Shown here: piece after piece, positions 3,005 to 18,356 of the stretch
How positions within the stretch are numbered: position 1 is the stretch's first letter
Layout of the letters: every line of letters starts with the position of its first letter
IMG/VR virus record: IMGVR_UViG_3300031857_000937
Span: 1-30,541 of that record
DNA: 30,541 bases
Strand: one strand, 5' to 3'
Source of the DNA: a virus
Lineage: Duplodnaviria > Caudoviricetes
The notes under the pieces: generated by a model
Seen by the model: only the letters and a program-made list of their open reading frames with translations
What the model was told of the DNA's origin: nothing
The model's database searches: none
Made by a program: the position numbers and the translations under genes

Positions 3005-3032
3005 TTGACGAACCTAATACATCAGGTACAAT
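3005..3032 (+). promoter_or_regulatory. Sigma70-type promoter driving the repeat array and downstream genes
   Basis: TTGACG (3005-3010)-N16-TACAAT (3027-3032), about 30 nt before the first array unit. Confidence 0.7.
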
Positions 3033-3055
3033 CAAGTCCAACCTACCTGATGTAT
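3017..3055. promoter_or_regulatory. Perfect 12-bp inverted repeat (operator candidate)
   Basis: ATACATCAGGTA 3017-3028 / TACCTGATGTAT 3044-3055 with a 15-nt spacer, overlapping the -10 box and the predicted start site. Confidence 0.55.
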
Positions 3056-3061
3056 CTGCGG

Positions 3062-3720
3062 GGCCGGATTAGGCTAGGTCGGGCTTGGTAGTCAACGGCA
3101 TGGGCTGTTTACAGCGTCATGGCTTTTCAATGAAAGGTCATTTCGGTGGCAACACCAATCGGACGGCACGGTCGGGAAAGGCTCGGCACGGCGAGGAGAG
3201 GCGGGGACTGGTATGGGCTGTTAACAGCGGGAAGCATTTTTTACAGAGTGCTTTTCGGTGGCAACACCAAAGTGGCGTGGTTGTGGCTCGGAGCAGTGCG
3301 GTCAGGCTCGGTCGGCAAAGGCACGGCGAGGGCTGTTAACAGCGGGATCACTTTTCCATGAGAGGTGATTTCGGTGGCAACACCAAAATGGAAGGGCTGG
3401 CAGCGGCACGGCTAGGAGGGGTGTGGAAGGCTGGGGCATGGGCTGTTAACAGTGGTTAGTCACTTGCAAAGGTGGCTACCCGGTGGCAACACCATTTGGA
3501 CTGGCCTGCCACGGTGCGGCGGGGCGGGGTCGGGCATGGAAATTCTGGGTAAAACAAGGGCTGTTAACAGCGTTATGAGTCTTCATTGAGGGTTCATCTC
3601 GGTGGCAACACCAAGTGGCTTGGACACGCCGGGAATGGCTAGGAGGGGCGTGGATTGGCAGGGGCTAATGTAGCGTCATGACACTTCAATGAGGTGTCAT
3701 TTCGATGCAAAGCGTGCATC
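3062..3720 (+). ncRNA. Tandem array of six putative guide RNAs: GGH-NN pentamer tract + three hairpins (VIPR-like)
   Basis: Units at 3062-3156, 3165-3268, 3274-3384, 3390-3493, 3498-3612, 3617-3720. Each has 8-12 pentamers (50 of 60 start with GG; third base never G), then GGGCTGTTAACAGC, a variable covarying stem-loop and GGTG-GCAA-CACC. The last unit has divergent versions that still pair. Confidence 0.85.
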
Positions 3721-3740
3721 AATTAACCAAAGGAAACATC

Positions 3741-4310
3741 ATGAAAACAATCGCAGTTCAATTAACAGGCAAGGCTCCTTTTCTCATGCACTCGGACCGC
3801 TTTGCTAACCCGCTTGACCCACTTGCAAAGGCCCACAAAGAGCTGACCAGCAAGCGCAAGAAAACAGACGACGACCACACTGCCATCGCGCGCAGTGAGT
3901 TCATCGGCGGCTGCTACTGGCGCAAGGACGTTGGCTTCTTCTTGCCAGCACAGAACCTCGATGCGTGCCTGATCGCCGCAGCCAAGTTGCAAAAGCTCGG
4001 AGTTAAGTTCAAGCAGGGCGTGCAGGTATTGGAAGATGAGCTTACGTTTACGGGGTACGACAAGAAAACTCCCGAGCAACTATGGGAAGACCCAGAGCAC
4101 ATTGACTGCCGTGGTGTCAAGGTTGGCATGGCAAAGATCATGCGCTACCGCCCCATCCTTCGCAAGTGGTCTCTGAATGCAACCATCGTTGTCAACGAAG
4201 AAGTGGTCAACCTCAACGAAGTAAAGAAGGCTGTGCAAGATGCTGGAGCCCTGATTGGTTTGGGCGACTACCGCCCACGCTTTGGCCGTTTCAATGTGGA
4301 GTTCATTTGA
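3741..4310 (+). CDS. RAMP/Cas7-like RNA-binding protein (189 aa), putative effector of the upstream array (Vipr-like)
   Basis: AAGGAA Shine-Dalgarno then ATG 3741. N-terminal strand I.V.LTG.APFLMH, central LPAQNL.ACL..AAK helix and C-terminal glycine-rich loop GALIGLGDYRPRFGRFNV follow the RAMP (RRM-fold) pattern. Lies immediately downstream of the array. Confidence 0.75.
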   Translation: MKTIAVQLTGKAPFLMHSDRFANPLDPLAKAHKELTSKRKKTDDDHTAIARSEFIGGCYWRKDVGFFLPAQNLDACLIAAAKLQKLGVKFKQGVQVLEDELTFTGYDKKTPEQLWEDPEHIDCRGVKVGMAKIMRYRPILRKWSLNATIVVNEEVVNLNEVKKAVQDAGALIGLGDYRPRFGRFNVEFI

Positions 4311-4789
4311 TGCAAGAAATGACACTGTTCCCGGCTTGGAAACAGGCCGTCAAGATTCTGATTGATGAGGGCCTAACCTATGGCAGCACCATCAGCAGAA
4401 AGCGCATCTCTGAGCTTTGCAATGTGCGGCCACCAGAGAGCATTGAGGATGTGCGCCGACATGACCTCGAGCTCCTGCAATGCACATCAGAGATCAAAGA
4501 CATCCTGTTGACTGCCCACTGCATGCTCTTGGCGTCTGACAACAAGGGCTCTTACGTAGTCATTGAGCCAGAGTCGCAGACCCAGTACGCAGTGAACACC
4601 GGCATCAAAGCAATCGGTCGTGAGATGAAGAAGATGGCCATGTCCGTCAGCTTTACAAAGGCAGAAATGCTAACCGATGCCGGCAGGGCAAAGAACGCAG
4701 ATGCTCAGGCAAAGATTTCAATGCTCGCGGGAATGATGAACGTGAAAAACAAAGATCTTCAAAACGCACTAGGAGGAAAAAATGACTGA
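4310..4789 (+). CDS. Accessory protein coupled to the RAMP-like gene (159 aa, MQEMTLFPAWK...), possible winged-helix plus helical tail
   Basis: TGATG stop/start overlap at 4308-4312. A helix-helix-helix then beta-hairpin pattern (MLLASDNKGSYVVI) suggests a wHTH fold; the fold is inference. Confidence 0.7.
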   Translation: MQEMTLFPAWKQAVKILIDEGLTYGSTISRKRISELCNVRPPESIEDVRRHDLELLQCTSEIKDILLTAHCMLLASDNKGSYVVIEPESQTQYAVNTGIKAIGREMKKMAMSVSFTKAEMLTDAGRAKNADAQAKISMLAGMMNVKNKDLQNALGGKND

Positions 4790-5030
4790 AAACGAACGGA
4801 GCAAATCAATCGACATCCTTTTTGATGCAGTGCGGATTTCCAACAAGTTTGGCCCACTGATCGTGAAGGAGGCGGACAACACGGGTGGCACAGCAGCCAC
4901 AGCGGCAGCCATCTTGCTGTCCTCATTTACAAGCGCCATGGGCATGTCCTTGCATGATGCTGTGGGCCTGTTCATGTCGGTTCACAAACAGACCATGGCA
5001 ATGGAGCGCGAAGATGAAGCTGACAAATAA
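4782..5030 (+). CDS. Hypothetical protein (82 aa)
   Basis: AGGAGG Shine-Dalgarno; overlaps both neighbours. Confidence 0.7.
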   Translation: MTENERSKSIDILFDAVRISNKFGPLIVKEADNTGGTAATAAAILLSSFTSAMGMSLHDAVGLFMSVHKQTMAMEREDEADK

Positions 5031-5916
5031 CTTCGGCATGCCCGAGACGATCCTCAACGTGATCGCACGCCCGCAGTACAGCAAAGGCAAGGCCAACATG
5101 TCTGTAACCGAGCTGCTCAACAGCCCGCGCATCGTCCAGCTCAAGCGCAAGCACTGGGAAGACTTGACCGAGGACGCAGCCGACATGGTTTGGTCCATCT
5201 TTGGCACCGCCATCCACAACATCCTTGAGCACGGCAAGGGCGACACCCACGTCGTTGAAGAGCGCATCCACGTCGAGCTGGACGGCATGCGTATCAGCGG
5301 TGCAATCGACTTGCAAGAAATCTCTGAAGACGGCATCACCGTGTCCGATTACAAGACGACCAGCGCATGGGCTGCAATGCAGGAAAAGAAGGACTGGCAC
5401 AACCAGCTCAACAGCTATGCGTACCTTGTTGAGAAGGCCAAGGGCATTCCCGTGACCAAGTTGCAGATCGTGGCCATCGTGCGCGACTGGAGCCGCAGGG
5501 AGGCCCAATACAAGGAAGGCTACCCCAAGGCACCCATCGTAGTGATTGACATCCCTCTGTGGCCGTTTGCCGAGCGCGAAGCCTATGTGCGCAGCCGCAT
5601 CTCACTGCATGGTGACGCCCTCTTTGAGATGGAGACTGACGGCGAGATGCCCAACTGCACATCAGAAGAAATGTGGGAGAAGCAAACCACTTACGCGCTC
5701 AAGAAGGATGGCAACGTCCGAGCCAAGAGCGTTCACGACACAAGCGAAGCAGCAGACACGGCTCTGGCTGCCGCAACAGAAAAAGCCAAGAAGAGCGAAA
5801 AGTTCCTGATCGAAGTAAGAGAAGGAGGGCGTACACGCTGCGAGAGCTTCTGCCAAGTAGCGCCGTACTGCCAACAACACCAAACGTATCTTTCCACAAA
5901 AGCCAACAAGGAGTAA
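5014..5916 (+). CDS. PD-(D/E)XK (RecB/Cas4-like) exonuclease (300 aa)
   Basis: SVTELL.SPR, GTAIH, EER, ISGAIDL, DYKTT, QLNSYAYL motifs and a C-terminal Cys cluster (PNC...RCESFCQVAPYC). Start at ATG 5014 after GGAG. Confidence 0.85.
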   Translation: MKLTNNFGMPETILNVIARPQYSKGKANMSVTELLNSPRIVQLKRKHWEDLTEDAADMVWSIFGTAIHNILEHGKGDTHVVEERIHVELDGMRISGAIDLQEISEDGITVSDYKTTSAWAAMQEKKDWHNQLNSYAYLVEKAKGIPVTKLQIVAIVRDWSRREAQYKEGYPKAPIVVIDIPLWPFAEREAYVRSRISLHGDALFEMETDGEMPNCTSEEMWEKQTTYALKKDGNVRAKSVHDTSEAADTALAAATEKAKKSEKFLIEVREGGRTRCESFCQVAPYCQQHQTYLSTKANKE

Positions 5917-9402: not shown

Positions 9403-12400
9403 TTACATCTGAGCCTGCTTCCGCAATTCGGGTAGATTGACCGACTTCAGCATCTCTTTTTCCACTTCGCGCAGCTCTTTGATTGCGTCCTTCTTTTCGG
9501 ATGCGGAGTACAAATCTTCAGGCGCATTGGTGATTTGGCTGACGGCCCTGCGAATCTTTGATAGCTGCTCGCCAATCTTCTCCGTGCCTTTGGCTAGACC
9601 CAATCGGGCAATATTCTTTTCGTCGGACAGGAACTTCTCAAGCTCTTGCGGGCTCCTCAATTTGATGTCGTTATAGGTGCTCTTGGTCTTCTCCACCTCA
9701 TCTCGCAAGGCGTAGAAGTCCGTCTTGAGCGCGTTCTCGCTGGCCTTGGTGACAAAGCCGCTTGTGCCCGGGAGGGATGACAGCGCATCACGGAACGACA
9801 GCTCAGGGCGGGGAACATCAGGATCATTGTTGATCATGAAGTTGGTCGTGTACAAAAACAAACCACCAGCCGATCCAAACATGCCGCGAATCATGTGATC
9901 AGCCGCAATTGGCGACACGCCAAACTGGCCCAGCATCTTCGAGAACTCCGAGGTGTTGTCATTGAACTGGCGCTCAGCTTCTTTCTTCTTCTCAAACTGC
10001 CCAATCAGTGGACGGCCTTGGAAGAAGTCGTAATTGATCGCCACCTCAAGAGCTGGCTTCACGGCTTGAGGAATCGGCTGTGGGCTCAGCACTGCGTTGG
10101 CAATGCCGTCGGCAACTGACTTCCTGAACTTGGCGCCATCGGAAAATCCGGTGTCGGTGATCAGGTGGTACAAGTGCTCGGTCAAAACCTTGGGCATCAA
10201 GAACAAGTCTGGACGCAAAGGAATGCGGAAACCACCGGTGCCGGGGACGTTCAAGGTGCGGTCACGAACAGCAGTGGGTGTCTTCTCGTACTCATCATCT
10301 CCGCCATTCATCATGGTGTAGAAGAGCGACAAGGCCATGACCGCACCAGAGGTGGTGGCCAGAGTCATCAGCGCCTCTTTGCGTTGCTGCGGCGAGATGC
10401 CGACCCCGGTCAGCACCTTGTACGCCGTGCGCTGCACCGACATGTAGGCATAGAAGAACGGCACAGTCTGGCCAGCCAAGTTCACCAGCTTGCTCGTGCC
10501 ACGGCGACGGAAGTTGATGATGTCAAATGCCTTCTCAATGGCCTCGCCCTTGGACAATCCCTGCTGCATGGATGCTTCGTACACGGCCTGACGGATAGCG
10601 TTATCAGCGGCCATAGCAACATGGCTCAGGAACTCAATTCCCTTGCCAGCCACCCCCTTTGACCCCCTCAAGCCTGCCGCAATCTGGATGTCGTTACGAG
10701 CGATGGTGGCGTTGAAGTCACGCACACCGGTCGCACCATACGACTCAAGCAGCTTGTGGGTTGCACTGGTCTTGGTCAGAGTCTTGAGAAACTCCTTCAC
10801 CGCCAGCACTGGAATTCTCAAGGCGTAGCGCGTCTTCAAGCCGGAGGTAAACATTGCCGAGTAGGCGTCCTGCGGGACCTGTGCCAACGAGAACAGGGGG
10901 TACAAGACCACAGACTGACGCAGAACGTTTGAGAACCAAGTGAAGAACTTCAGGCTTGGAATGGTCACGTTGCTGATGGCAGAGAAGGCATCCACGTACA
11001 GCGGGTCGGCCATGCTGTAGATTTCTTGGACGCCATCACGGAACACGCGAATGGTGTTCTTCTTGGGGTCCATCTTCTCGACCTTCTCAGCCATCTTCCG
11101 ATCACCCACTTGAAGCTCAGTACCAAGGTCAACCATCTGAAGCGCCTTGTGGTTGCGTACAGAGCGGTTGATGGCGTACTGAGTCCAGCGCACCATGTTG
11201 TCAAACACGTCGTTCACGGCTGCGTTGGAGCCCTTCAGGCGGAACTCTGCTGCCTTGACCTGCATGCCCTTGATGAACTCTTGCGGGCCACCGCCTTCGT
11301 CAAGCTGCTCTTCACGGTAGAACGGCACGTAAGCTGCGTTGTCCAGCATGCTCTCGGCATACTCTCGGCTCCACAAGTTGCCGTCAATCATGGCCTTCAC
11401 AGCGTTGGCACGGATACCCTGCCAGATGTCGCTGATGTTTTCCAGCTCGGGCATGTTCTTGGCCAAGCTCATGCCGGGCTCAATCATTGCAATCTGCTCA
11501 GGGGTAATCAGGACGCTGGCCTTTTCAAGCTTTGCAATGTCAGCCCTGATATCGTTCTTTGCACGCTCGGAAGTGCGAAGCTTCTCAAAGTCGCCGTCCT
11601 TCTTGTACTGCTTGATGTTGGCGTTCTCTTCTTCCAGCTCAGCTTTCAGTCGGTCAATCTCTGCCTCTCGCGTGCGCTGCTTTTTCAACAGGTCCTTGAA
11701 CCGCTTGGCCACGAAGTAGGTGTGCGAAATCTGCTCGGCCTGCTCTTTGTTTAGGCCATACTTTTCGGCAGTCTTCTCAATCTCTTTGGCAAGAGTGATG
11801 AAGTTGTCGTCGCGCTTGATGGAGACCCACTTCTTGGTCTCTGGATCGAACGCAATGCCGCCATCAACAATGAAGCGCGTAGCCAAGGCGTCAGCATGCA
11901 CGGCCTGAGACTGACTGGCCTCAAGCAGCATACCCAACACCTCTGGGTTGTCGGCAAAGTCCTTCTGCAAGTTCCTGCGGATGTCGTTGTTGAACGCCGC
12001 ATCGCCGGAGAAGGCTGCAACTTCCATCTTGTCCAAGAACTTCTTGACGGCACTCTTTGCCGAGTCCTTCGTCATTGCTGGGTTCTCGCCAGTGGCCTTC
12101 AGGATGTCCTTGATCTTCTGGATGCGCCCCGGGTCAGGCGGTTGAAGCTGCATGCCTGTTGCATCAAGGATGTTGAGGTTTTCTTGACCAGCCTCCGTCG
12201 GAGTCGGCTTTCCTTGGCGCTCTTCGGAGACTACAACCTCAACGTCTGGCGTACCGTAGACATCCTTTAATGCTTCTCGAACCTTGTTAGCAGTCTTGTT
12301 GGCATCCTTGGAGAACACGATGTCATTTGGATTTACATACTCCGCACGCTGCGTAAATCTTTCGCCGTTTTTGTCATAGCCATGAAAGGTGGTTTGCGTT

Positions 12401-15400
12401 TTTGGATCGGTAAATCCAGACAAGCGCGAGCCATCTTTCAGAGTTACTGGGTTCTTAAATCGGTTTGCGTAGCCTTGCTTGCGGTCTAACTCAGACTGCT
12501 CTTTGAAAAAAGAGTCAAGGAAAAACAGAGGTTTTTCTTTTTCTTCCTCGTCAACCTTTGCTTCGCCAGCGCCCTCGGGCGAGACGATGATTCTTCCACC
12601 CTTGATCTTGACGCCCTTCAAAGGAACCTTAGAGGGCTTCATGTCAAGCTCTACGTCCGAAGGCGACATGCCCATGATTGTTTCGGAAGTTCTAACCAGA
12701 TTGTCAAGTGCGCTCTCATAGTCTTTGGAAAGGCCAAGCACCTGACGGACGATTTCAATCAGCTTTGAAAACCCGGTCTTGTCTGCAATCTTGATGTCAG
12801 CAAGAAACTTCTGGAACTCTGAGTCGGTCAAACCCCAAGCCATAAGCTCAGCCGGGTTTTTCATAATGTTTGCGCCGCGATCAATCCTTGTAATCGCGTA
12901 GTTGCTCTTACCGGCAGCCCTGTCCTTTTTAATCCTGTCGTCAACTTTTTTGTACAGAACCTTGAGGTCGTTTATGGCTTTTGAGTTTGGCGCTAAGTAG
13001 ATTTGCGCAGATGTTGCTGCATGAATAAGCTCATGCAAGATTGTCAGATACCTTGTTCCCGTCTGACCGTCCGCCTTACCATCAACAAGTCCATTCAGCC
13101 TGATTTTTACAAGCGTGCCTTTGCCTTCGGCCCAGAAACTTTGGGCCATCCCTCTTGTTCCGCTTTTCCACCTTGCGCCGCCATTGAGAACCTTCACCTT
13201 TTCTGGAAAGATTTTTCTCTTTGCAAACTCGTTGATGCGCTCAGTTACTTTTTGAGCAATGGCCCTTGCCGCCTCGTTTGGTGCGTTGTCAACAGTCCAC
13301 TGCGCCATCTGAGGGATGGTCATACCGTTAACTTCTTTGGCAATCTCCTCCATGGGCTTGTTAATAGTGAACTCTGGCTTGTCCGTCTTGTCGTAGGTCG
13401 GCTCTGTTGGCTCTGGCGCCTTGGGCTCCACTGGTTTTGCGGCCTTGGGCTTTGCAGGTGCGGCAGGAGCAACGGCGGGCGCAGCAGCCTGCGGCTCAGC
13501 CGGAGCGGCGACTGGCGCTGCGGGCGGAGTAAACATGTCAGGCTCAGCTTCTGGCTCCAGTACCAAAGCCTTGTACAGGTCATCCTTTGGCATCTTCGGA
13601 ACATTGCCAAACATGTCTGTGTCGGAGGCGTTTGCCTGCTCGGCAGCAGTTGTCGCCAGACGATCCAGCGCTTCAGCCATACGCTTTGATGAACGGCTGT
13701 TATCCGCAAACATCTCGAGCACTTTGAGCGCATACGGGTCTGCGCCCAGCATTCCCTGCTGTACGTAATCCTTGAGCTTCTGACCTGACCTACGTGCATT
13801 GACGGCCATCTCTGCCGCATCAAGCACCGAGGCCCGCACGTCGTAGTCGCCAGCGCCATCAAGAGCCGCCATCTTTGGAGCGGCCTTGGCCAGCGCATTG
13901 AGCACAGCCTTCGCTTCTGGGTCGGCAGCTTGCGCGTACAGCTCAATCAGAGTGTCGCTGCCATATGCCTTGTAGAAGATTGCGTTGTTCAGGCGGTCAA
14001 TCGCCTTGGTGTTGGGCATGCCCTTGGCGTCGATCAACTCACCCTGCTCATCCTTCGGCATGGAGCGAACGAACTGGATCAGCGTGTTGGTGTTGGGGCT
14101 GCCGTCGTCATTGAAGGTCAGGCCGCCCAAGTCAACCCGGCTGATATCGTTCTTTGCGGACTCGACAGGACTCAGGCGCAGCGTGCCACTAATGTTGCTG
14201 ATATCCGCAATGTTTGAAGTTACCTTCGACTTTGGCATCACGCGCACAAGCACTGGATTTTGGAAGCCGCTGATGACGCCGGCATCAATGCCGTGCTCAG
14301 TGTCTTCAATCATCTCGCGCTTGTAGTTGTCAGCAGTTCCTTGGCTGTAGGCCGCACGCAAACCAGCCACCCGGCCATTACCGGCAATGGGGCGAATCGC
14401 GGATACGGACAAGTCGCCGTACTCGGGGTTCTTTGTACCATCAGAAGTGTTTGATGGCGTGATGTCGTTGCCCTCTACAACAGCGTAGCGGACAGGGATT
14501 CGAGTGCCATCAGATGCGGTGGCGTATGCAACCTTGCCGAACTGGGTATCGCTGATTGGCGTGTCGGAAATAACAACCGGGGCACCAGAGCCAAAGTCAC
14601 GGTTAACACTCAGGCGAGAGTAGTCTGGGTTAGCTGCAATGCTTTGCATTTGACCAACGGACGCAGGCGCAGAGCGGTCACGGTTCTGGAAGAACGAACC
14701 AGCTTCTGGCGGCAGGTTTTCCGTGTAGTCATTGGACCACTCCGAAGCCTTTGGGGCCTGTGCGGCGGGGGCAAGAGGCTCTACCGGAGCAACTGGCTCT
14801 GCCGGAGCGGCGCTTACCAGTGGCTCCTCTGGTGTGGGGGTTGGCTCAACCACAGGGGCCGCTGGCGGTGCTGGCGGCTCTGGCGTAACAATGGGCCTTG
14901 CGACTGGCCGTGGCGTAATCGGAGCGACGGGCGCGGGCGGCGCTTCGGCGGCAGGCTTTTTGAGGGCGTCAGTAGCCGTTGCATAAGCGGCAGCAGGAAT
15001 CTCAACAGCAGCACCACCAAGGCTACCCAGCATCTCTTGGCCAACATCTTCAAGGTTAACCTTGCCGTATGCGGCGGCCTGACCAGCGGCCTCGGAGATG
15101 CCTCCTCCTGCCACATCAATACCCAAAGATCCAGCACCACGACCAACAGCCGACTGAACCTTCTGGCCAGTGGTACGGGCTTTAAGCAGATCATCTGCGC
15201 GGGCCGCAATCTTTGCTGCGTCAGCCGTGGCACCCATTTCTTTGCGCGCGGCTTCGATGGCTGCACGGCGTGTGCCAGTGGCGAATCGACCAGCACCAAC
15301 CGTCATAAGTGAGTCAATGGAGGCAGTTGTTATGCCCTTTGTGCGAGCCTCGCTGACCGCCTTCTCCATGGCGGGGGTGTCGCGCAACAGTGCGGCTACA

Positions 15401-16101
15401 TTCGCCTCTGTCGGCTCAAGGCCCCGCTCACGAAGTGCGTCGCCAATACGTCCGATGAATTCAGAGCCAACCTCCAGCGGAGCGCCGGCAGCAAACCCGC
15501 CACCAATAGCGCCCACACCAGCACCTATTGCTGCGCCGCCGGGGCCACCAGCAGAGCCAATCAATGCTCCGCCCTTGCCGCCAGCAATCATGCCTGCGAT
15601 CTGAGGAGCCATATTCGCCGCGCTTTGAGCCGCCAAGTACGCGGCACCCTTGGGGTTTGTAACGGCCTGCTTACCAAACTCAAGCAGCATGTCTGCTACT
15701 GGACCAATACTCTCTCTGAATCCTTTGGCCTTCTCAAAAGCAGCAGCCTCATCTTTAAATGCAGTCTGTGCCGCCACCAACTCAGCGGGACGCACGCCAT
15801 CAGGGCGACTTAACTCCTGAGATAAAAGCGCAGCCTTATCCGCGCCAACATTTCCGGTCACTACGGATGGGGCAATCTTGGCAGCGCCAATGGCACGCTC
15901 GCCACCCTCATAGATCAACGATCCGATGTTAGACAGGAAGCCCTTTTCTTCTTTGGCCTCGTCGGTCATCCACTGGTTGTTTACCAAGTAGGCTTTTTGC
16001 CCTTGGTTGTTTGTGGCAGTTTGCCCAACCGGCACCCACTGACCATCGACCAATGCAACTGTCTCGCCTGTCTGTGGGTTTGTCGCGGTTTGGATTGCCA
16101 T
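9403..16101 (-). CDS. Large polyvalent (ejected/internal virion) protein, 2232 aa: DdrB-like ParB domain, zincin HExxH motif, LPD38-like C-terminus
   Basis: QNRDRS...GAPVV...IAGNGRVAGLRAAY (about 14190-14700); TILHELIHAAT (about 13010-13045); NYDFFQGRPLI...SP.AADHMIRG..G near the C-terminus. Last gene of the virion operon. Confidence 0.8.
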   Translation of the reverse strand: MAIQTATNPQTGETVALVDGQWVPVGQTATNNQGQKAYLVNNQWMTDEAKEEKGFLSNIGSLIYEGGERAIGAAKIAPSVVTGNVGADKAALLSQELSRPDGVRPAELVAAQTAFKDEAAAFEKAKGFRESIGPVADMLLEFGKQAVTNPKGAAYLAAQSAANMAPQIAGMIAGGKGGALIGSAGGPGGAAIGAGVGAIGGGFAAGAPLEVGSEFIGRIGDALRERGLEPTEANVAALLRDTPAMEKAVSEARTKGITTASIDSLMTVGAGRFATGTRRAAIEAARKEMGATADAAKIAARADDLLKARTTGQKVQSAVGRGAGSLGIDVAGGGISEAAGQAAAYGKVNLEDVGQEMLGSLGGAAVEIPAAAYATATDALKKPAAEAPPAPVAPITPRPVARPIVTPEPPAPPAAPVVEPTPTPEEPLVSAAPAEPVAPVEPLAPAAQAPKASEWSNDYTENLPPEAGSFFQNRDRSAPASVGQMQSIAANPDYSRLSVNRDFGSGAPVVISDTPISDTQFGKVAYATASDGTRIPVRYAVVEGNDITPSNTSDGTKNPEYGDLSVSAIRPIAGNGRVAGLRAAYSQGTADNYKREMIEDTEHGIDAGVISGFQNPVLVRVMPKSKVTSNIADISNISGTLRLSPVESAKNDISRVDLGGLTFNDDGSPNTNTLIQFVRSMPKDEQGELIDAKGMPNTKAIDRLNNAIFYKAYGSDTLIELYAQAADPEAKAVLNALAKAAPKMAALDGAGDYDVRASVLDAAEMAVNARRSGQKLKDYVQQGMLGADPYALKVLEMFADNSRSSKRMAEALDRLATTAAEQANASDTDMFGNVPKMPKDDLYKALVLEPEAEPDMFTPPAAPVAAPAEPQAAAPAVAPAAPAKPKAAKPVEPKAPEPTEPTYDKTDKPEFTINKPMEEIAKEVNGMTIPQMAQWTVDNAPNEAARAIAQKVTERINEFAKRKIFPEKVKVLNGGARWKSGTRGMAQSFWAEGKGTLVKIRLNGLVDGKADGQTGTRYLTILHELIHAATSAQIYLAPNSKAINDLKVLYKKVDDRIKKDRAAGKSNYAITRIDRGANIMKNPAELMAWGLTDSEFQKFLADIKIADKTGFSKLIEIVRQVLGLSKDYESALDNLVRTSETIMGMSPSDVELDMKPSKVPLKGVKIKGGRIIVSPEGAGEAKVDEEEKEKPLFFLDSFFKEQSELDRKQGYANRFKNPVTLKDGSRLSGFTDPKTQTTFHGYDKNGERFTQRAEYVNPNDIVFSKDANKTANKVREALKDVYGTPDVEVVVSEERQGKPTPTEAGQENLNILDATGMQLQPPDPGRIQKIKDILKATGENPAMTKDSAKSAVKKFLDKMEVAAFSGDAAFNNDIRRNLQKDFADNPEVLGMLLEASQSQAVHADALATRFIVDGGIAFDPETKKWVSIKRDDNFITLAKEIEKTAEKYGLNKEQAEQISHTYFVAKRFKDLLKKQRTREAEIDRLKAELEEENANIKQYKKDGDFEKLRTSERAKNDIRADIAKLEKASVLITPEQIAMIEPGMSLAKNMPELENISDIWQGIRANAVKAMIDGNLWSREYAESMLDNAAYVPFYREEQLDEGGGPQEFIKGMQVKAAEFRLKGSNAAVNDVFDNMVRWTQYAINRSVRNHKALQMVDLGTELQVGDRKMAEKVEKMDPKKNTIRVFRDGVQEIYSMADPLYVDAFSAISNVTIPSLKFFTWFSNVLRQSVVLYPLFSLAQVPQDAYSAMFTSGLKTRYALRIPVLAVKEFLKTLTKTSATHKLLESYGATGVRDFNATIARNDIQIAAGLRGSKGVAGKGIEFLSHVAMAADNAIRQAVYEASMQQGLSKGEAIEKAFDIINFRRRGTSKLVNLAGQTVPFFYAYMSVQRTAYKVLTGVGISPQQRKEALMTLATTSGAVMALSLFYTMMNGGDDEYEKTPTAVRDRTLNVPGTGGFRIPLRPDLFLMPKVLTEHLYHLITDTGFSDGAKFRKSVADGIANAVLSPQPIPQAVKPALEVAINYDFFQGRPLIGQFEKKKEAERQFNDNTSEFSKMLGQFGVSPIAADHMIRGMFGSAGGLFLYTTNFMINNDPDVPRPELSFRDALSSLPGTSGFVTKASENALKTDFYALRDEVEKTKSTYNDIKLRSPQELEKFLSDEKNIARLGLAKGTEKIGEQLSKIRRAVSQITNAPEDLYSASEKKDAIKELREVEKEMLKSVNLPELRKQAQM

Positions 16102-16103
16102 AA

Positions 16104-18356
16104 TCAGTTCAACTTAAAGCCGGGTGGAGGTGGTGGTACTTTACCCGCTGTTGGCGGTGTTGTCGCGCCGGCACCCATTTTTGTCATGCCTGAAATTTGC
16201 TTGTTAATGTCTTCCATTCTCTTAAGGGCGGCATCTCTTGCTGACTTTGGGAGCATAGGATTACCAGCGGTTTCTTCTGCGTTCTTGAGAAGGGCTTTCA
16301 ATTCCGCAAGCTCCTGACGATCAGCGGCAACGCCAGCGCCTCCACCACCTCGGCCAACCAGTGCCTCCAAGTCTGTAGCCTGAGCCATCAGCTCGGCAGC
16401 AATCTTCGGATCGGTTGCCCTGCGAGCTTGCTGCTTCAAGGATGTGATCTTGTTGATGCGAGCCTGCTCGTTGAAGTTGCCCGTCTGACCGATGGTTGCA
16501 GTCCTAATCTGGGTTTCATTTCGTTCACGAGCTTCAGTAGCCCTTTGTTCGATTTCAAGCAATTTAAGCGTCTCTTGCTGGGCAAGCTTACGGGCCTCCA
16601 TCTCACTCGTGCCAACAGCTTTAGCGGCATCGTATTTTTCTTTGAAGATTCGGTCGTACTCTTTCTCGCCAACGCCGTAAAGCTCTTTGGCGTATGTACG
16701 AGAGGCATCAATCTTGCCTTGCTCTTGCTCAATAATCTTGGAGCCAAGGTCAAAGCGCTTCTGGGCACGCTGCTCTTCCAAGCCTCGCACGCCACGGGCG
16801 CCGGCAGCGCCAGCCTCAAACGATGACATGCCTCGAGGGGTGGCTGCGATCTGGCCAAGGTATTCCATGAGTTGGCCATACGAATCCTGCGGTCCAACCT
16901 GACGATCTCGCTCTGCCTGCAACTGTTTGATCATTGCGTCGCGCTGCGTGGTGTCTGGATCACCAATCCGAGACTTGTACATCATCTCTTTATTGGCAGC
17001 GGCGGCTTGCGGGTCGGCACGCATGCGCTCGACATCAAGGGCTTGGGCCTCAGCTTGCAATGCAGAAATTGGCGGTGTAACGCTTGCGGGTGGCGAGGCA
17101 ACGGGTGGCTGCTGTTGCACGGTAGGCGGTGCTGCCGGTACTGGGCGTGGCGCTTGTTGACGCTGCTGATCAGCTAAGGACCTCACGGCGGGCTTTGGCT
17201 CTGGCGTATATGGACGAGCGCCAGTGCGGCCTGCTTTAGAGTAGCCCGATTCTTCAGCCGGAGATGGCGGTCTTTCTTGAGGAGCGGCTTCTACGGAGGT
17301 CTTGTTTTTATCAAGACCAAGTAAGCCCACAATTCCAGCCAAAACCCCGCGAGCCGAGCCTGCGCTACCACTGAGGCCGCGAGATGCGCTTGCGCCGGGA
17401 AGTGCAAGAAGGGTGTTTTTGACTCTGCGCTCGGCTTCGGAGCTGTCTACGCGATCACCGCCTGTAACAGTACCATCTCCACCACTGGGAATTTGAGCAA
17501 TGCGGGCTTCTCGGGCGGCTTGCGCTTGACGCTCATCGGCGGTTGGCTCGCCACGGTTTTGGCGGTTCATCCGGTCGTAAGGTGTTTCGTATTTTGGACG
17601 GGATGCAGCCTTCTCGCGCTCACGATCCAGCATGGCGTTTTTACGCGCAGCACTTTCTTCGGAGGCATTCAGCATGGCGCGATTGTCCGGCTGGGGTCCA
17701 GTGGCTTCACGCATCGCACGAGTGTATAAATCACCAGACTCCAAGCCGGGAATGCTAGATAGGTCTGACTCGGTGATCTCCATGGGAGGTCGCTTAGGAG
17801 GTGGTGGATTACGGGCTTCTTCGCCAATAATTCGCATCAACAGCTCCCGCTCAAGGCGAGTTCGCTCCTCTTCAGAAATTCCAACTTCATCTTGAATGCG
17901 TGGAACGCGCTTACCCTCTTGGAACGCAACGATGCCGCCACCAGCCATCTCAAACTCTACTGGTAGCTCATCAATGCCTTGGGGCTGCGCTTGGGCAAAC
18001 TGCGTTCCTTCCGGGACCGGGCCGGGGCCAGCTTGTTTTGCCATGGCCTGCATGGCTTGTTGTTGCTGCTGAGCCTGAACCTGCTGAGCCTGCATCTTCT
18101 GACGAGCTTGCTCCTGCACAGACTCCATCACGGTGGGCGGCTTCCCTTGCGGACCTTGCATCTGGGCAAGCTGGCTCAAAGCCTGCTGCTTAGCCATGGC
18201 GTCTTTTTCGTTTGTGACGATGTTTAAAGCCATCAGCTTTTGCAAGTCTTGGGGCAGACCGGGCTTGGCTTGCTGCTCCTGTTGAATGCGCTGCTGGAGC
18301 GGTGCTGGGTTCCCACGGAACAATGAGGCGATGCCTTGTGCGCTAGGTTGACTCAT
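16104..18356 (-). CDS. Putative internal virion / DNA ejection protein (750 aa)
   Basis: Q/A/P-rich, helical, MAGGGIVAFQEG motif; lies in the podovirus-type ejection block. Confidence 0.65.
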   Translation of the reverse strand: MSQPSAQGIASLFRGNPAPLQQRIQQEQQAKPGLPQDLQKLMALNIVTNEKDAMAKQQALSQLAQMQGPQGKPPTVMESVQEQARQKMQAQQVQAQQQQQAMQAMAKQAGPGPVPEGTQFAQAQPQGIDELPVEFEMAGGGIVAFQEGKRVPRIQDEVGISEEERTRLERELLMRIIGEEARNPPPPKRPPMEITESDLSSIPGLESGDLYTRAMREATGPQPDNRAMLNASEESAARKNAMLDREREKAASRPKYETPYDRMNRQNRGEPTADERQAQAAREARIAQIPSGGDGTVTGGDRVDSSEAERRVKNTLLALPGASASRGLSGSAGSARGVLAGIVGLLGLDKNKTSVEAAPQERPPSPAEESGYSKAGRTGARPYTPEPKPAVRSLADQQRQQAPRPVPAAPPTVQQQPPVASPPASVTPPISALQAEAQALDVERMRADPQAAAANKEMMYKSRIGDPDTTQRDAMIKQLQAERDRQVGPQDSYGQLMEYLGQIAATPRGMSSFEAGAAGARGVRGLEEQRAQKRFDLGSKIIEQEQGKIDASRTYAKELYGVGEKEYDRIFKEKYDAAKAVGTSEMEARKLAQQETLKLLEIEQRATEARERNETQIRTATIGQTGNFNEQARINKITSLKQQARRATDPKIAAELMAQATDLEALVGRGGGGAGVAADRQELAELKALLKNAEETAGNPMLPKSARDAALKRMEDINKQISGMTKMGAGATTPPTAGKVPPPPPGFKLN

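Follow-up and report, generated by a model that had tools for sequence, protein, structure and literature searches.

A probable type II-like VIPR locus in a tailed phage, with guides that match conserved genes of other mobile elements

What is read by an array of tandem five-nucleotide steps that lies beside two small genes in a tailed phage? The array and genes occupy positions 3005–4789 of the Caudoviricetes record IMGVR_UViG_3300031857_000937, of which all 30,541 nucleotides (nt; 30.5 kb, hereafter the window) were analysed. A first-pass annotation, made from the letters alone, had proposed the viral interference programmable repeat (VIPR), a CRISPR-related gene silencer published in 2026. 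Here we computed the anatomy of the locus, its homology, its predicted folds, selection on its variable dinucleotides (NN) and its target matches with controls. We consider it very probable that this is an intact type II-like VIPR locus, in which the NN pairs of six guide units, with one target base passed over after each, match conserved stretches of genes belonging to other mobile elements; these genes are likely bound and silenced. Such silencing likely stops resident parasites from leaving the host chromosome. VIPR itself, the code that it uses and its targeting of recombinases are already in print; the locus itself is a further VIPR member, one whose natural targets are unusually well resolved. 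Its parts are the following.

3005–3032, plus strand: predicted sigma70-like promoter, TTGACG-16-TACAAT, recurring in close relatives
3017–3055, unstranded: perfect 12-bp inverted repeat over the promoter, perfect in near-identical phages only
3057–3101, plus strand: guide tract 1 (CG TA TA CG TT AG AC AT), no target found in the scans described below
3102–3157, plus strand: structured tail 1
3165–3214, plus strand: guide tract 2, matching TR[KN]ST[DE][DE]GL of large serine recombinases beside DUF2924
3215–3269, plus strand: structured tail 2
3274–3329, plus strand: guide tract 3, matching antisense S-x-FRDWAA[ED] of P4-type tyrosine integrases, with a 1-nt bulge at 3284 and unit 8 mismatched
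3330–3385, plus strand: structured tail 3
3390–3439, plus strand: guide tract 4, matching antisense, at best 20/20, IPLTPYVA[HQ]L of a second family of Arm-domain tyrosine integrases
3440–3494, plus strand: structured tail 4
3498–3557, plus strand: guide tract 5, matching LLTAGGRIKC, the N-terminal motif of the HGGxSTG-domain gene of integrase–primase islands
3558–3613, plus strand: structured tail 5
3617–3661, plus strand: guide tract 6 (TT CA CG AT TA GG GT TT AG), no target found in the same scans
3662–3720, plus strand: divergent terminal tail with compensatory changes
3741–4310, plus strand: vipr gene, 189 amino acids, predicted protein of the repeat-associated mysterious protein (RAMP) fold
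4310–4789, plus strand: vap1-like accessory gene, 159 amino acids

The open reading frame (ORF) at 3741–4310 ties the locus to VIPR. As first annotated, it starts 20 nt past the last tail, ends in GALIGLGDYRPRFGRFNV and is TGATG-coupled to the 159-residue ORF at 4310–4789. It matches the entry 'SUSP1 Vipr protein' (PDB 36pp_D) with a phmmer E value of 7.8e-46 and 38% identity over 189 residues, and falls in phrog_4652, which also holds the Vipr of Escherichia phage SUSP1. The type II VIPR of that phage is our reference (10.64898/2026.04.26.720920, 10.64898/2026.04.26.720927 and 10.64898/2026.10.15.759431; PDB 36pp); the preprints were available in part, and what we draw from them refers to those parts. 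The RAMP/Cas7-like character proposed at first pass is upheld at the level of prediction: the AlphaFold (AF2) model has a predicted local distance difference test score (pLDDT) of 92, and its top Foldseek matches are Csm/Cas7 RAMPs (E ~1e-5, TM ~0.5). The protein keeps H17, K33, R137, D176 and R178, has Y177 for SUSP1 W178, and also keeps R39, K82 and G87 (read off alignments); the SUSP1 equivalents of these residues, W178 included, are described as RNA or DNA contacts (10.64898/2026.04.26.720927). Residues essential in SUSP1 (K33, K82, R138 and D177, with R39 partial) are present here as K33, K82, R137, D176 and R39.

The accessory ORF belongs to phrog_5926 (E 1e-15), again the PHROG of its SUSP1 counterpart, Vap1, although direct identity is just 21%. 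Its AF2 model reaches pLDDT 90, and Foldseek gave no match at E ≤ 0.001, only weak winged-helix rows. Neither Pfam nor NCBIfam returned a family for Vipr or Vap. We found 641 Vipr homologues. A vap homologue follows vipr in 55 of 56 loci, the sole miss being cut off by a contig end, and both genes are intact across the clade. The homologues were also checked for adjacent periodic arrays, as the first-pass annotation had proposed, and period-5 GG tracts adjoin vipr in 49 of 49 viral relatives. The earlier assignment to VIPR is thus supported by homology to SUSP1 Vipr, by shared PHROGs for Vipr and Vap1, by the predicted fold, by the linked arrays and by guides that decode to mobile-element genes. 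Guide units lie downstream of vap in one relative (L030:5054–5105) and between vipr and vap in another (L048:4606–4808), so that array position varies within the family. A third (L033:2392–2826, minus strand) has a second, four-unit array on the opposite strand, ~0.7 kb upstream of its vipr-linked array, and one of these units carries the recombinase block described below.

Between the promoter and ORF 3741 lie six units, anchored at 3102, 3215, 3330, 3440, 3558 and 3662 and spaced by 113, 115, 110, 118 and 104 nt (range 104–118 nt). Each is composed of a variable tract of 9–12 pentamers, degenerate ones counted, followed by a constant structured tail of ~56 nt that takes up about half of the unit. 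GG-initial pentamers in register with the tail number 48 of 63; over 5000 shuffles the best phase averaged 23.8 and never exceeded 33. Shuffling 2000 times gave no more than two tracts, compared with the six seen here, and no further GG-period-5 tract occurs elsewhere in the window. The third base of the GG units is C in 24, T in 9, A in 12 and G in none (n = 45; 27% GGA), and the tracts contain 7 non-GG units. The original description of six non-coding, tandem GGH units therefore stands. Its equation of each unit with a guide is supported by the tracts, four of which decode to targets, but it had missed the structured tail, and the code proves to be gapped, with one base skipped.

In the published code, an NN pair is followed by one skipped target base (10.64898/2026.04.26.720920). 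Read in this way, four of the six guides have an assigned target in other mobile elements, namely integrase, recombinase and island genes, and these matches are consistent with the action against mobile elements suggested at first pass. Guides 2 and 5 have the sense orientation, guides 3 and 4 the antisense one; each keeps to the codon frame and skips the wobble base. Across the clade, 37 of 100 unique guides, in 30 of 40 loci, were assigned to four target classes. Diverged phages share NN strings: in 72 guide pairs, picked on position 4 alone, the rate of difference is 33% at pentamer position 3, 15% at position 5, 11% at position 2 and 2% at position 1. A relative with a 99% identical Vipr (L001) carries eight units; three of these do not occur in the window array, and L001 is without unit 5.

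Guide 2, as an exact 18-nt pattern, has ~740 matches in IMG/VR, a total estimated from 11 of its 64 parts. All 120 of the 120 retrieved matches read CA[IVT]Y-TRKST[DE]EGL or a close variant, the serine of which we take to be the catalytic serine of large serine recombinases. Two target proteins that were scanned are Resolvase+Recombinase proteins adjoining DUF2924. With a 2-nt skip the guide has 0 matches. A search of 121 genomes for guide 2 returned 6 matches at 18/20 and 1 for the control (genome searches with guide patterns covered one family). In ~108 of the 120 retrieved loci, an unrelated guide shared by L005 and L006 matches VYK[IM]DRL at a point 219 nt downstream, and other guides of the clade match another gene of these DUF2924 elements. 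A conserved ORF that lies downstream of the recombinase in DUF2924 elements is matched by a recurrent guide family, P[KN][KR]V.WDQ (L007:989, L009:202 and L014:537). One 18-unit guide (L016:3589–3680) reads KTIHGRE-TR-KSTEEGL[DE], an HGGxSTG motif and a serine-recombinase motif sharing TR, and from this string looks like a two-target chimera. Long guides of L018, L028 and L033 hold the recombinase block with other flanks.

Guide 3, as a 16-nt pattern with unit 8 left open, has ~190 matches; 110 of 121 lie in P4-type tyrosine integrases, on the template strand, at H-G-x-R-S[TS]FRDWAA[ED], just past the HxxR motif. Longer versions of this guide in relatives extend into HGFR. Guide 4 has 6 exact viral matches over 16 nt, 2 of which are integrases. 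A 20-nt search allowing up to 2 mismatches found 36 matches, five of them perfect, spread over 31 of the 301 genomes in the family of a Rhodoferax metagenome-assembled genome; the reversed control gave 0, and 19 of 20 fetched loci read as an IPLTPY-type integrase. The guide fits at 20/20 despite 3 GGA and 2 non-GG units. Two of the matched integrases adjoin SIR2+HerA genes, together with a phage GPA replication gene (L513), and TIR+caspase and PLD genes (L514); judged by sequence, these neighbours are defence-type cargo.

Guide 5 has two exact 20-nt matches in metagenomes, one of which is the LLTAGGRIKC N terminus of an NF041373 HGGxSTG protein (20/20). A homologue of that protein from an independent protein search fits the first eight units of the guide at 16/16, and 75 of 120 HGGxSTG homologues fit at ≥8/10 codons compared with 0 shuffled, a comparison that is partly circular. 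Of 100 unique clade guides, 12 fit six or more different HGGxSTG-family motifs (shuffled, 1 and 0). In eight HGGxSTG regions, a tyrosine integrase lies within ~5 kb in five, a primase, helicase or polymerase gene is next to the HGGxSTG gene in six, and neither integrase nor replication gene is present in two; no virion-gene Pfam match was obtained from the ORFs submitted (57/84 and 56/84). In two regions (L523 and L526) the nearby integrase carries the guide-3 motif, so that guides 3 and 5 can match one element. Such islands may be satellites of this phage. That 12 guides converge on this functionally uncharacterized gene makes it and its islands candidates for important parasites. The HGGxSTG protein as a terminase small subunit was considered and not established (1 of 40 members, E 0.0075). 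An Atlas search gave unnamed clusters only, and a literature search, in which subscription journals were thinly covered, found neither the term HGGxSTG nor the accession NF041373 in any paper.

A broader reading is possible, if somewhat doubtful. In it, the guides reveal undescribed minimal satellites composed of an integrase, a primase or polymerase and the HGGxSTG gene, with no virion genes, in which the HGGxSTG protein would hijack the phage. A broad-spectrum, GGA-tolerant VIPR would then strike both ends of these satellites as well as whole recombinase families, with one guide per catalytic motif and sometimes with two-target chimeric guides.

The guides do not point at the phage itself. 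Against the window none reaches 80%, the best self-match being 78%, and the window and VIPR-flanking loci are matched by no more of the 138 guides than chance would give (23 with a skip of 1, 22 with 0 and 18 with 2), so these loci provide no evidence for targeting of related phages. A 750-amino-acid ORF at window position 16229 (minus strand) is matched at 18/20 by a guide of L033, about chance for the number of tests. The phage is probably lytic. Tyrosine integrase, serine recombinase and HGGxSTG matches were all absent from five relatives that are 93–100% complete, which suggests a lytic phage with guides aimed outward.

By analogy with SUSP1, the array would be transcribed from the promoter at 3005 to give RNAs of ~110 nt, each comprising a tract and a tail. 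One Vipr subunit would occupy each pentamer and offer its NN pair to a DNA duplex, the skipped position falling on the wobble base of the codon. The resulting filament would form an R-loop triplex and, once bound and with the help of Vap, stop transcription. Resident islands and prophages would then be unable to excise, replicate or exploit the infection, a likely benefit to the phage. The natural guides match hundreds of recombinase genes at once, and skipping the wobble base can thus give family-wide coverage.

The third base of the GG units sets this clade apart. GGA occurs in 0 of 39 in SUSP1, and the array departs from the strict pyrimidine third base (GGY) of the SUSP1 and P. fulva consensus. 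In 30 GGA-rich loci, 180 of 728 GG units are GGA and 3 of 728 are GGG, compared with 20 GGA of 520 in 19 other loci, the two groups being defined by GGA share itself. Third-base swaps in NN-matched guide pairs are C/T in 123, A/C in 83, A/T in 64 and A/G in 2. Vipr here seems, on these counts, to tolerate GGA but not GGG. Other consensus forms than GGY are known, among them NNNGG (10.64898/2026.04.26.720920) and TGH/NN triplets (10.64898/2026.10.21.760802, as far as available). With non-canonical triplets already published, GGA richness is a clade trait rather than a new class, and family membership stands. The third-base pocket is Q71/N72/I172/L174 here and E71/M72/C173/V175 in the deposited SUSP1 sequence; we rejected these residues as the cause of GGA because they are also present in GGA-poor loci. 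Columns that do differ with GGA share (A70, D74, A79 and others) are confounded with ancestry. A Vipr that accepts GGA but not GGG would put the published Y3-pocket model to a natural test and may broaden the choice of guides.

Several results weigh against this overall reading of the locus. The 27% of GG units that are GGA carry a base that the SUSP1 structure excludes, its third-base pocket being said to exclude purines (10.64898/2026.04.26.720927), and GGY>GGA is listed among the constructs of an experiment in which perturbing GGY abolished SUSP1 silencing (10.64898/2026.04.26.720920). Guide 3 of the window fits integrases at 16/18 only, unit 8 agreeing with a single site out of 121. A search of 121 genomes with the complete guide yielded 35 matches compared with 18 for the control; tallied by eye, ~7 of these are integrase-type and ~9, at 16–17/18, lie in a host gene that we presume to be hydrolase-like. 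The other metagenome match of guide 5 is an unrelated sensor-type ORF, its five exact viral matches are all unrelated, and as a 24-nt pattern it gave 1 unrelated match only in 251 genomes. In the same number of genomes guides 1 and 6 did not exceed their controls (6 versus 6 and 11 versus 16), and no convergent target for either emerged from exact IMG/VR scans or the HGGxSTG regions. Transcription, processing, binding, silencing and the excision block are carried over from SUSP1, and the host and the satellite nature of the islands we infer.

These points lend themselves to other explanations. Were the locus a decaying VIPR, with GGA and non-GG units arising by drift, many guides would be dead and the array partly or wholly non-silencing. 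The 12 GGA among 45 GG units, the 7 non-GG units, the reported loss of silencing on GGA substitution in SUSP1, the targetless guides 1 and 6 and the 2-nt mismatch near the 3′ end of guide 3 would all suit such decay. We nevertheless find it improbable: the scarcity of GGG beside abundant GGA in the 30 GGA-rich loci implies that position 3 is still under selection, the NN pairs that follow GGA and GCN units have kept their match to targets (guide 4, at 20/20), and vipr and vap remain intact across the clade. The same machine might instead serve another purpose, silencing mainly host defence islands (as polar, cargo effects) or host genes rather than blocking excision. Of 4 regions examined, 2 do have a guide-4 integrase beside such defence genes (SIR2+HerA and TIR+caspase-like), and guide 3 fits the host hydrolase-like gene at up to 17/18. 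Yet it is recombinase and HGGxSTG genes, rather than defence genes, on which the guides converge; the 5′ extension of guide 3 favours integrases, with GT at −2 in 65 of 105 as against 0 of 4 for the hydrolase; and the tested SUSP1 case, in the available part of its report, acts by blocking excision (10.64898/2026.10.15.759431). We therefore regard this purpose as very improbable.

It is scarcely credible that searching huge collections with codon-spaced patterns produced spurious target matches and that the repeats are not guides at all. Every xNN pattern has the period of codons and is bound to match coding sequence somewhere, and the first matches were selected by the guide itself. Other 16-nt patterns with a 1-nt skip, however, gave 5–36 scattered exact matches only, and independent guides match further motifs of the same genes or elements, as with VYK[IM]DRL and the HGGxSTG family. 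Skips of 0 and 2 match 0, 0 and 0–1 guides where the one-base skip matches 11, 13 and 2. Together with the controls and matches of guides 2 and 4, these results largely refute an artefact.

As a VIPR locus with guides against other mobile elements, the window shares with SUSP1 a vap1-family gene directly after vipr, ~100-nt units of pentamer tract plus structured tail, a 1-nt-skip code on wobble bases and a guide aimed at the recombinase active-site region of another element. It differs in having all six units upstream, whereas SUSP1 has one upstream and three downstream, and in its GGH rather than GGY units (27% A, compared with 0% A). Its tail is predicted to form adjacent hairpins whereas that of SUSP1 is a pseudoknot, and its guides match three recombinase families and the HGGxSTG gene as opposed to one satellite family. 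The type II VIPR of Pseudomonas prophages (LESphi2 and Medea1) has a Vipr 46–58% identical to that of the window and a similar tail, GGGCTG..CAGC-hairpin-CGGTG, and the LESphi2 array is also upstream; GGA is rare there (~3% in LESphi2, 1/9 in Medea1). The P. fulva system differs, by its published description, in targeting mostly lysogeny-switch regulators of prophages. With class 1 CRISPR–Cas RAMPs (Csm3/Cas7) the predicted fold shares an RNA recognition motif (RRM) core, thumb and G-loop, but the code is gapped, the window lacks contiguous spacers, and cas1, cas2, cas3 and cas10, already reported missing at first pass, were not found among its 27 main ORFs scanned. A minimal vipr–vap pair in a viral genome without a CRISPR array and tandem 5-nt GG/NN repeats, traits of VIPR (~9–16 units), are both present.

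The published set comprises 664 VIPR loci (10.64898/2026.04.26.720920), among which the clade of the window may figure. The published Vipr phylogeny has seven types; in the tree made here SUSP1 is the sole typed member and sits on a long branch. In the available portions of four preprints (10.64898/2026.04.26.720920, 10.64898/2026.04.26.720927, 10.64898/2026.10.15.759431 and 10.64898/2026.10.21.760802) the term 'serine recombinase' does not occur, and the target families of the window and the HGGxSTG islands were not found in the VIPR literature as available.

The tails fold strongly (z −3.1 to −5.5), and compensatory pair types occur in the 75 tails that were parsed, to some extent as a product of the way the parse was built. 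The same YA bases take part in compensatory pairs of two helices, a 4-bp hairpin and another helix further downstream, with no clean pseudoknot. At 3102–3157 and in other tails, the YA bases of the first hairpin change in concert both with the 5′ arm of that hairpin and with a TR lying downstream, which suggests a switch or a base triple. The central hairpin of the tail resembles a hairpin upstream of the SUSP1 tracts. Rfam holds no family for the array and gave no support for a hammerhead-interspersed array type, and Tandem Repeats Finder misses the array. Metatranscriptome contigs from one set cover the array, vipr and vap of a relative and are patchy elsewhere; they cannot show strand, level or DNA carry-over and were not counted as evidence. 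The near-consensus promoter of the first-pass annotation has the sequence described and recurs upstream of the array in several close relatives, but the motif alone is not above chance (2 sites found, 1.3 expected). The inverted repeat at 3017–3055 spans the −10 box and the likely start site; it is partly kept in relatives, where ACCTG-like motifs recur, and was rejected as a conserved operator, being perfect only in near-identical phages.

Elsewhere in the window, the minus strand carries holin, endolysin, tail and virion genes, and the plus strand ERF, SSB and exonuclease genes. A 2232-amino-acid virion-type protein is encoded at 9403–16101 (minus strand), its PHROG matches all being of unknown function. 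Just downstream of vap, at 5017–5916, sits a PD-(D/E)XK exonuclease that also matches a 'CRISPR/Cas associated' PHROG; this weaker match, to phrog_1706, is the sole Cas-labelled one and lies among the ERF and SSB recombination genes.

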